From the NCBI GenBank assembly GCA_044892505.1, contig CM097884.1, positions 140,306,001-140,370,000 on the forward strand: 64,000 nucleotides of DNA. Direction: 5' to 3'. Source of the DNA: Schmidtea nova. Its lineage: Eukaryota. Under the pieces are notes generated by a model. It was not told the origin of the DNA and ran no database searches. It saw only the letters and a list, made by a program, of their open reading frames with translations. Position 1 is the stretch's first letter, and each line of letters starts with the position of its first letter. Shown here in pieces: positions 57,456 to 59,985 of the stretch. The position numbers were made by a program, and so were the translations under genes.

Positions 57456-58801
57456 ATTTGCCAATAAATTCCTATTTTGAATGTCTCCATCAGTGATATC
57501 ATTATTGTAGTGTACAGGAATGAATGGCAATTGTTGTTGTTTTTATTATTATTGAATGTATTTTGGTACAGAACCCCCCCCCAAATTATTTGTATGCATT
57601 GTGGTTGTGATTTTTATTGTGAATTTGATTATAATTATGATTATGATTGAAATTGTGATTGTAGTTGTAATGGTAACTATAATTTTATTGTAATTGTAAT
57701 TGTACTTTAATATTAATTATAAATTTGAATCTGGCATGCTATAGCAAATTGCTATACTAAGTCAAATCACAAATAAAAGAATTCGATTAATTTGGAAGTT
57801 AAAATTAAAAAAAAATTTTACTAATAAAGATAATTGGCTTTGGATTTTACTGATATTATTAGGTTTATTTCCAACTGATAATACAAGAAGTTATTAAAAG
57901 AATAATTGAAAATAATAAATTTTATCATATTAAAAATTGCAATTACTATCAAAAATAAAATCCCAAGTAAATAGAAAAGACTATTCAACAATTTTTTCAA
58001 TTTCACAATTTTATAATCTAAAGAAAATCCTAAGAACACTATTTTGCCTTACGTGAGAAGGGTTGATTTTTATTTGGTATTCATAGTTAATTAAATAAAA
58101 TTTGTGATAATTAACATTCTGTTCTGTTATATTTTGCTATTGCTATTCCACCTATTATACAAACACATACATAATGCACGCATACATACACCATATTATT
58201 TAAAATAGCATTCACCCTAGCAGTCCCGATACACCGTTACAGGAGACTCTACTGGTTCTACATTTCTCTTAATATTCTTAGCAAGCTACATTATTCTAAC
58301 GATAACCAGACATAATAATTATTATTAAATTCAGCTCTTCGTTGTCATTGATTTTCATTTGACATTGTGCATGTGCTTTATGTATATATGAGTTTGTGTG
58401 TGATGTTTGTATGTATATCGAATTAGATTTGTGAGTTTATTTTGTGTGTGTTTGTTAATTGAATTTATTAGCGCTCTTGGATTGGCCTGTGGTTTTAAAA
58501 AAGGAAAGAGAAGCTCTGTGTGTGGTTTGAGTTTTCTCTGCGAAGGAACTTAGCTGTTCATTGAATTTTTGAAAAGTTGTGGATTATACTCGTATATCAT
58601 TTTGGAAACGTGCTTTTACAATTTGTTTTCTGGAATTTTGGTTTAATTTCAAAAAATAAAAATTAATTCGTTTCGTAATTTCCCTTAAAATTGAGGATAT
58701 GTTAGATTGCGAGATGATATTTACCGATTAATCAACTCTGCACAGTCCTCTTAGTTCATAATGGCAACGCTTGATAGAAATTCCGAATTATCCAGTACAT
58801 A

Positions 58802-58836
58802 TGGTAGCAGAGCGCGGTTCCTTTACGGGGGCCACG
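58802..58836 (+). promoter_or_regulatory. tRNA-iMet-like PBS after an LTR-like end (...GTACA)
   Basis: TGGTAGCAGAGCGCGGTT, 2 nt after CA, followed by the same GGGGGCCACG as at 43993. Confidence 0.7.
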
Positions 58837-59163
58837 CTAGAATTCAGAAAATTAAGGCCCAGATGAGAACTTTTGAAAGATATTGAGCTTTACCATGAAA
58901 AAGAGATCTCAAAATGCGAACTTTCTAAATCAAGGAAATTGACAACGAGATTCCCAAAATTTGCAGACATCGCCGATTTACCGATAGTACAATCAGTAGA
59001 AAACCAGATGATAGCATGTAAGATTACAATTTACTGCGATCCGATTTTTAAAATTTATTTTTATAAAATTCATTGGGATAGGGTATTGTTTTTGCCATAT
59101 AACGGCACCCCCCGTAATGGGCCCCGGAGGTTCTCAAGGGATACCCTATCCCTTTTAAATAAA

Positions 59164-59387
59164 CAAATATTCGTAAGAACATCGATTGACAAAGATGTCA
59201 CGGTCGAAATAGAATTGGAATCGTCAGTCCACGAACTTAAAAATGAAATTTATAGAATTGAGGAAATTCCATTAAAAATGAAAATTTTATCCATGGAGGG
59301 AAATATCTGTTAGGGGACACAAAATAGAAGGACCATAGAATCAACCATGGTTCCATGGTGCAAGTGTTAATGTGCTTAACGGGAGGA
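59164..59387 (+). pseudogene. Ubiquitin-like domain with C-terminal GG
   Basis: QIFVRTSIDKDVTVEIELESSVHELKNEIYRIEEIPLKMKIL, then after one frameshift HGGKYLLGDTK*KDHRINHGSMVQVLMCLTGG. Collinear with ubiquitin MQIFVKT...LRLRGG. Confidence 0.75.
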
Positions 59388-59985
59388 AGTAATGAAAATG
59401 AATTTTTCGGAGGTTTACCGAAGGTATCGAGAAGAAAGAATAGGTTAACAAGAAGTAGGAATCAGGTGAAGATGGAATTAGGTACCTCGGGTACCACTAT
59501 TTCATTGGGTAATGTTGAGGAATATTATTTCATGGGGTAATATTATTTGGGCACTTATATAAATTTAATTAAATTACTATAAAATATATTAAAAGATTGT
59601 CTAATTAAATTATTTGTCAGTATCAAATATTTAACTAAAAATATGTTTATATTCCCTCTATTTAACAGTGATCATTTTTGCTATAACTATTTTTGCATTT
59701 TTGTTGTTGTTCCGACTTTGTCTTACATCCAGCCAAAAGAAGTCGTGGTCGACTCCCAGATAAAAGTTCGATTGTTTTGTAACTGATCCCATTTTGTTCA
59801 TCAAGATTTTTAATGTTAAATAAAAACCTGAAATCGTTTTTTACAGCTCATTATTTTTTTAATGGCAAATATTAATATTTTAGTAGCTCATATTGATTTT
59901 TTGTAGCCTTAATATGTTTTGTAGGCGCTCCAAAATATTTAATCTAAAGCCCAAATAATAAAATTTGGCGCTCGGATTTTTTTAA

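Follow-up and report, generated by a model that had tools for sequence, protein, structure and literature searches.

Ubiquitin-like domains ahead of Gag in BEL/Pao retrotransposons of Schmidtea nova: candidate sites of cleavage by host deubiquitinases

Ubiquitin lying within a larger protein and marking the point at which it is cut is known from viruses and from cellular genes. Cytopathic BVDV isolates (Osloss, CP1 and CP Rit) carry captured ubiquitin in the polyprotein with other host sequence in front of it (PMC8310069, PMC13517609), and the internal, truncated ubiquitin of CP Rit is cut by host hydrolases to yield NS3 with an exact N-terminus (PMC8310069). The elements described below resemble these isolates in having host ubiquitin inside a polyprotein behind other host sequence. 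However, the BVDV insertions are repeated single-isolate events in an RNA virus, releasing NS3, whereas here the arrangement is fixed in a deep retrotransposon lineage, identity to ubiquitin is 45% in the family represented at our locus, and cleavage by host enzymes is predicted from sequence. SDE2 and FAU have divergent UBL-GG leaders, which deubiquitinases (DUBs) sever at the GG and KLHDC2 then clears (PMC8013793), and SDE2 is cut by USP5 (PMC13572447). Like the ubiquitin-ribosomal protein fusions, they place a ubiquitin fold ending in GG ahead of a working protein, but in all of these, which are host genes, the protein begins with the UBL, whereas here, in a mobile element, the domain lies inside the protein with a variable leader ahead of it.

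Retrotransposons are likewise known to acquire host sequence. In LTR-mediated retroposition, partial and sometimes multi-gene pieces of spliced host mRNA enter by template switching, and the cases described include a Pao element (Tan et al. 2016, PMC5131818). As described in the accessible part of that paper, the captures replace part of internal ORFs, whereas here they lie in the LTR and leader, before ubiquitin and in frame with an intact gag-pol. The giant Ty3/Gypsy elements Burro/GYPSM1 are also LTR retrotransposons with host-like domains in the polyprotein, but belong to another superfamily, with fixed BIR, MATH and ankyrin domains and an N-terminal Gag, and the accessible text names no ubiquitin domain (PMC6431247). 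It has been described as rare for an LTR retrotransposon lineage to acquire a host domain permanently (PMC9289625), and the words 'ubiquitin' and 'Pao' are absent from the available text of 10.1101/2023.12.22.572568. In the literature searched we found no description of a ubiquitin-Gag fusion; repeat databases and most subscription papers lay outside that search, and a repeat-library entry may exist. Ubiquitin-fused non-LTR elements are said to occur in protists, and no report of them was found in the same literature.

The locus that led to these elements lies in a 64,000-nucleotide stretch of the S. nova contig CM097884.1 (positions 140,306,001 to 140,370,000; hereafter the window), where a decayed and truncated copy of a BEL/Pao LTR retrotransposon, of a family that we call F1, occupies positions 58760-59484, with all of its parts on the plus strand. 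A decayed 5′ LTR remnant (58315-58799) ends in CA (58798-58799) and, after a 2-nt spacer, is followed by a tRNA-Met primer-binding site (58802-58819); both the LTR-like end and the primer site had been recognized in the original prediction. A linker (58820-59160), broken here, leads to the ubiquitin-like domain and matches the F1 copy L022 at 80% nucleotide identity with several indels. The domain (59161-59387) ends T-G-G, with the Gly-Gly at 59382-59387, and continues in frame into SNENEFF, the start of Gag, just as had been read from the letters. After 32 codons of the BEL/Pao gag start (59388-59484; 92% nucleotide identity to that of L022) the element is cut off, and a 150-bp satellite unit of repeat family D17 – the same repeat as at 55254-57435 – occupies 59484-59560. 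The interval originally predicted runs past the end of the element: its last 56 bases are not part of it, since similarity stops at 59484 and the satellite resumes there.

There are several features of this copy that bear on its history. First, the sequence at 58315-58799 has 50 dispersed matches of 71-97% identity, and neither a primer site nor gag lies beside the similar repeats at any of 14 other loci checked; these look like solo or 3′ LTRs, and we read 58315-58799 as a decayed 5′ LTR, the final 40 bp of which match the LTR end of F1 copies. The remnant may, with some uncertainty, start as early as 57442, an insert of about 0.8 kb then lying within it. Second, the primer site differs by one base from an 18-mer present in 85 of 87 sites of related loci, 15 bases of which form the complement of the 3′ end of tRNA-Met(CAT) genes in this genome; we take the primer to be the initiator tRNA. 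Third, the first half of the domain matches Pfam ubiquitin (PF00240) with an E value of 3.6e-5, below the curated cut-off. Fourth, the domain is interrupted by one frameshift (within 59260-59300) and one stop (at 59325), the two breaks originally counted, but further breaks lie between the primer site and the domain. Assembly error as the cause of the domain breaks was ruled out, since contigs of two public sequencing runs, which may come from the source sample, agree with the assembly across them. Neither pol nor a second LTR turned up in the window or in the 10 kb beyond it, and the copy is dead. The satellite of about 150 bp lies on both sides of the element (55254-57460 and 59484-59560), and because some of its units hold the same 10 bases as the start of the F1 LTR, it may derive from an LTR end.

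Intact relatives are present elsewhere in the genome. A DNA search for F1, in which 40 of 84 candidates were scored, yielded 46 matches; apart from the window's own, the long ones have 74-85% identity. The domain runs into the same gag start in all 38 fetched F1 loci with a readable junction, and at least 1750 codons are open after the GG in 10 of them. In L022 a single ORF of 2087 aa comprises a leader, ubiquitin (residues 258-333), DUF1759, zinc knuckles, a protease motif, RT, Peptidase_A17, integrase and DUF5641 (Pfam E values of 6.7e-16 for ubiquitin, 2.9e-14 for DUF1759, 2.2e-49 for Peptidase_A17 and 6.1e-24 for DUF5641). In the 17 copies with both LTRs in view these are of the form TG...CA and 96.5-100% identical within a pair, with target duplications of 5 bp in 11 copies and 4 or 6 bp in 4, the other 2 copies being tandem. 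Judged by these sequences, F1 is a recently active BEL/Pao family. Three near-identical tandem elements with shared LTRs and a period of 7441 bp (L022-L024; G000:C3:49660006-49683800) are also present, and the 5′ part of some F1 LTRs (101-376 of L022) contains an ORF of its own, 91 aa long and including part of a SNARE domain (Pfam E 1.6e-5; 27 genome matches), presumably syntaxin-5-like, for which genome comparison identified no host parent gene.

It is apparent from these copies how the elements relate to other BEL/Pao elements, which we take to be the Belpaoviridae. Paired LTRs, a mostly 5-bp target duplication, a tRNA primer site and one ORF with DUF1759 gag, zinc knuckles, protease, RT, a Peptidase_A17 region, integrase and DUF5641 are all shared with that group. 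Here, however, the ORF has its start within the 5′ LTR, runs through the primer site (read in frame as GSRAWF) and carries host pieces and ubiquitin-GG before reaching gag-pol. Open-frame copies in which the domain is fused to gag and pol between near-identical LTRs had been named as the finding to look for, and they exist; the proposed family with a ubiquitin-like leader is borne out, with the refinement that the domain is internal, behind 250-700 residues that start in the LTR. The domain shares an ORF with gag, but lies before Gag and not in its position, and replacement of gag by ubiquitin was rejected on the intact copies, which carry gag after ubiquitin. A plain host ubiquitin gene or retrocopy was also rejected: the domain of L022 is identical to host ubiquitin at 34 of 76 residues, as divergent as had been thought, it is gag-linked, and the true host ubiquitin genes are separate loci. 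The alternative that a host ubiquitin-like gene had been captured and retrocopied found no support, every readable F1 junction running into gag.

The beta-grasp fold that had been anticipated is predicted for L022 (15-row alignment) over residues 1-76, followed by a low-confidence linker around the GG and a helical Gag domain, with a pLDDT of about 85 over residues 1-70 and a Foldseek TM of 0.94 to ubiquitin; the model leans to ubiquitin because the alignment included ubiquitin-like rows. Folded without an alignment, the F1 domain gave a pLDDT of 39, which was not relied on.

The arrangement extends well beyond F1. There are 2602 candidates for Pfam ubiquitin in the genome, and most of the 150 scored lie in long ORFs; the best 14 of those 150 are in short frames, like host ubiquitin genes (5 were read). 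The elements thus make up most of the ubiquitin-like loci sampled (150 scored of 2602) and will mislead gene annotation. Among loci fetched because of their long ORFs, ubiquitin lies directly before gag in all 13 ubiquitin loci, and before gag in 20 of 20 DUF1759 loci (one of them frameshifted) and 20 of 20 Peptidase_A17 loci, each set of 20 being taken from 150 scored. Five families (F1-F5) are present, with Gags 32-54% identical, a common layout and the same primer site, and their domains are identical to host ubiquitin at 34 (F1), 71 (F2), 54 (F3), 64 (F4) and 60 (F5) of 76 residues. Ubiquitin R42, R72 and R74, which are important for recognition by many DUBs and by E1, vary among the families. 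F2 has all three and a full LRLRGG tail; in F1 the corresponding residues are N, G and K, with L8 and I44 kept; and F3-F5 also alter some of the three.

The GG itself is present in all 81 open ORFs of at least 300 aa and is absent from 3 of 38 F1 loci, all with broken frames. The residue after it is S, N or M in the five families, and never Pro; it is Asn in F2, F3 and F5. An N-terminal Asn is an N-degron, and the released Gag of those families might therefore be short-lived or arginylated. In F2, F4 and F5 a relic (the tail) of a preceding polyubiquitin unit lies ahead of the domain, which points to polyubiquitin mRNA as its source there. In a ubiquitin DNA tree that is mostly unresolved, the F4 domain groups with one host polyubiquitin unit (94/89), which suggests that F4 ubiquitin was recaptured or replaced later from the host. 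In many F2 and F4 copies (L105-L121, L171, L172, L175, L182) a long open frame takes in leader, ubiquitin, gag and protease but ends before RT, between near-identical LTRs, and these are likely to be active non-autonomous forms.

In 74 of the 80 elements having a primer site, the ORF starts upstream of it, in the LTR. Ahead of that site the ubiquitin frame stays open for 70 codons or more in 75 of 80 (3 of 160 for the other frames); these counts are inflated by the choice of F2-F5 loci for long ORFs, and F1, whose loci were taken for DNA similarity, gives 25 of 28. Relative to ubiquitin the primer site keeps one and the same phase in 76 of 80 elements, across all five families. Leaders vary among sister copies, with starts falling into 22 clusters among 73 copies (3 of the clusters are truncation artefacts), and 39 of 41 leaders scanned have Pfam matches to host families, including HSP70, HSP90, HECT, cobW, ribonucleotide reductase, prenyltransferase, FHA, PAC1, CCT and ThiF. 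Most of this cargo corresponds to abundant housekeeping mRNA. The two common F1 leaders have no Pfam match at E 1e-4, and no host parent of the 372-aa F1 leader is among the matches listed, which resemble LTR copies.

In the F1 copy L046 the leader includes 363 residues of VPS35, which read in frame into an intact gag-pol. The exons of host VPS35 are spread across about 20 kb, and in the LTR piece they lie joined at GT/AG borders, with 97-100% identity in three exon blocks. This piece comes from a spliced host message. Three copies begin with the calmodulin N-terminus, among them L115, which starts with its first 25 residues. Leader starts borne on the LTR are also common to F5 and F2 copies (L185, L187 and L192 with F2; L178 with L115, L118 and L120), and as the Gags of these families are only 45% identical, LTRs have probably been exchanged between families. 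Many insertions (L105-L121, L165-L204 and F1 loci) are in (AAT)n or (ATT)n tracts, where target duplications such as ATAAT and ATTAT recur; there may be a target preference for such tracts.

Relatives outside this genome were sought by a full HMMER search with a Gag profile, the best 150 proteins being taken. Seven of these, from ENA, JGI and MetaClust records, are ubiquitin-bearing: six have a ubiquitin match right before Gag and the seventh begins with a ubiquitin-like tail. GG is present in six of the seven, and P0029 ends KEG. A quick Gag tree of 25 rows (the five families, the seven outside proteins and 13 relatives picked for covering most of Gag) places the 12 ubiquitin-bearing Gags on one side of a branch and the 13 without ubiquitin on the other (SH-aLRT 95.7, midpoint root), for which one origin of the ubiquitin-Gag junction would be the simplest reading. 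The relatives without ubiquitin, of which the clam (Mya arenaria) proteins XP_052820245.1 and XP_052778542.1 are the nearest named ones and begin directly with Gag, start 30-53 residues before a motif situated 20-24 residues after the GG, and a cut at the GG would therefore fall about where Gag normally begins. Other searches gave less: word-index Gag searches found 1 and 8 relatives, none with ubiquitin, the ubiquitin-bearing ones being found by full HMMER only; a protein search with leader plus ubiquitin gave 17 matches, to ubiquitin-domain proteins, with a Pao domain in none of those listed; and the ESM Atlas gave DUF1759 clusters alone, at 0.80.

These elements consist of a variable host-derived leader, ubiquitin-GG and Gag-Pol, and we propose that host deubiquitinases probably cut after the GG and free Gag-Pol with a fixed N-terminus; by analogy, we are most likely dealing with a BEL/Pao retrotransposon that works as the BVDV ubiquitin insertions do. 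The frame would be translated from a start codon in the LTR-borne leader, and pieces of host mRNA would be swapped into the LTR and leader by template switching of reverse transcriptase. A host DUB, for which the USP5 type would be a first candidate in view of SDE2, would then cut after the GG, the leader-ubiquitin piece being discarded, possibly through the diGly C-degron route, and such a cut would be why arbitrary in-frame leaders are tolerated. The case for a DUB cut is strong for F2, with its canonical tail, and weaker for F1.

The pattern of constraint was examined as omega, taken as the number of distinct codon states per column with the 81 open copies pooled, a measure that is not tree-based. 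For private and shared changes it is 0.99 and 1.17 in the 80 codons just before ubiquitin, 0.40 and 0.40 in ubiquitin, and 0.32 and 0.25 in Gag (ubiquitin versus leader, p = 0.006; ubiquitin versus Gag, p = 0.34). With a value of about 1, the leader stretch is thus kept open but not conserved; the HSP70 leader piece of F2 gives 1.2-1.3. F2 ubiquitin differs from that of the host with a dN of 0.05 and a dS of 1.2-1.5. The probability that GG would survive in all five families by random change is 0.04, a modest value that assumes independence. Two observations count against cleavage in the window's own family: F1 taken alone shows no measurable constraint on the domain (3 silent and 10 replacement changes), and it has lost R42, R72 and R74.

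One rival reading, which would accommodate this loss, is that Gag retains the domain – if not in every family, then in the divergent ones, F1 for instance – and uses it to assist folding, as a surface for binding or as a signal for trafficking or degradation, the mature Gag end being made by the element's own aspartic protease. F1 keeps the fold and L8/I44 while having lost the three tail-recognition arginines, and the elements do encode a protease motif. Nonetheless we consider this unlikely: the GG is retained while neighbouring residues change, it is never followed by Pro, F2 bears the full LRLRGG tail, and the model sets the GG in a low-confidence linker between two domains. Somewhat less probable again is that the cut occurs but that the released leader-ubiquitin piece is what selection acts on, being conjugated to host proteins or serving as a decoy for the ubiquitin system. 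F2 ubiquitin, at 71 of 76 residues and with all key residues, would suit such a role, and some leaders contain pieces of ubiquitin-system genes (HECT, ThiF/E1-like, proteasome chaperone), but the tested leader stretch drifts, as does the F2 HSP70 piece, sister copies differ in their leaders, and the cargo is mostly housekeeping mRNA. That ubiquitin is simply another fragment picked up from an abundant message, carried along neutrally without loss of frame, would fit the many host fragments captured, the preceding-unit relics and the suggested recapture in F4, but is very improbable and largely refuted, as ubiquitin is whole, is the sole piece fixed in place across 12 deep lineages, and has an omega close to Gag's and lower than that of the cargo beside it.

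If the proposed cut by host deubiquitinases is real, the retroelement needs a host enzyme for capsid maturation, which would offer a simple handle for testing host control, and the cut would explain how LTRs can be loaded with host coding fragments without harming Gag. The five families, 45-93% identical to ubiquitin, form a natural series on what a DUB must see. A broader and more tentative possibility, which we would not put on a par with the cut itself, is that an old and widespread BEL/Pao clade leaves it to the host both to start translation and to shape the N-terminus of Gag, while host mRNA pieces, start codons included, are continually swapped into its LTRs and a built-in ubiquitin cut removes them. 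If so, the clade would steadily turn out translated chimeras of host genes, each set free with a ubiquitin tag.

Several further features of the genome and window were seen. A tandem array of tRNA-Met genes begins at G000:C1:510090089 (L221), with a 458-bp period and at least 99 units, and the tRNA-Met pattern has 1031 matches genome-wide. Within the window, a fragment interrupted by (AT)n at 54338-54756, which we take to resemble a mariner transposase, gave no relevant match in a Pfam search. An A-rich minisatellite at 60850-61915 is open in all three plus-strand and three minus-strand frames and is probably non-coding. Arrays of a 68-bp tandem unit are arranged in blocks at 14693-17450, and inverted repeats of 221-265 bp, 96-98% complementary, lie 15.5 kb apart at 36963-37239 and 52699-53216.
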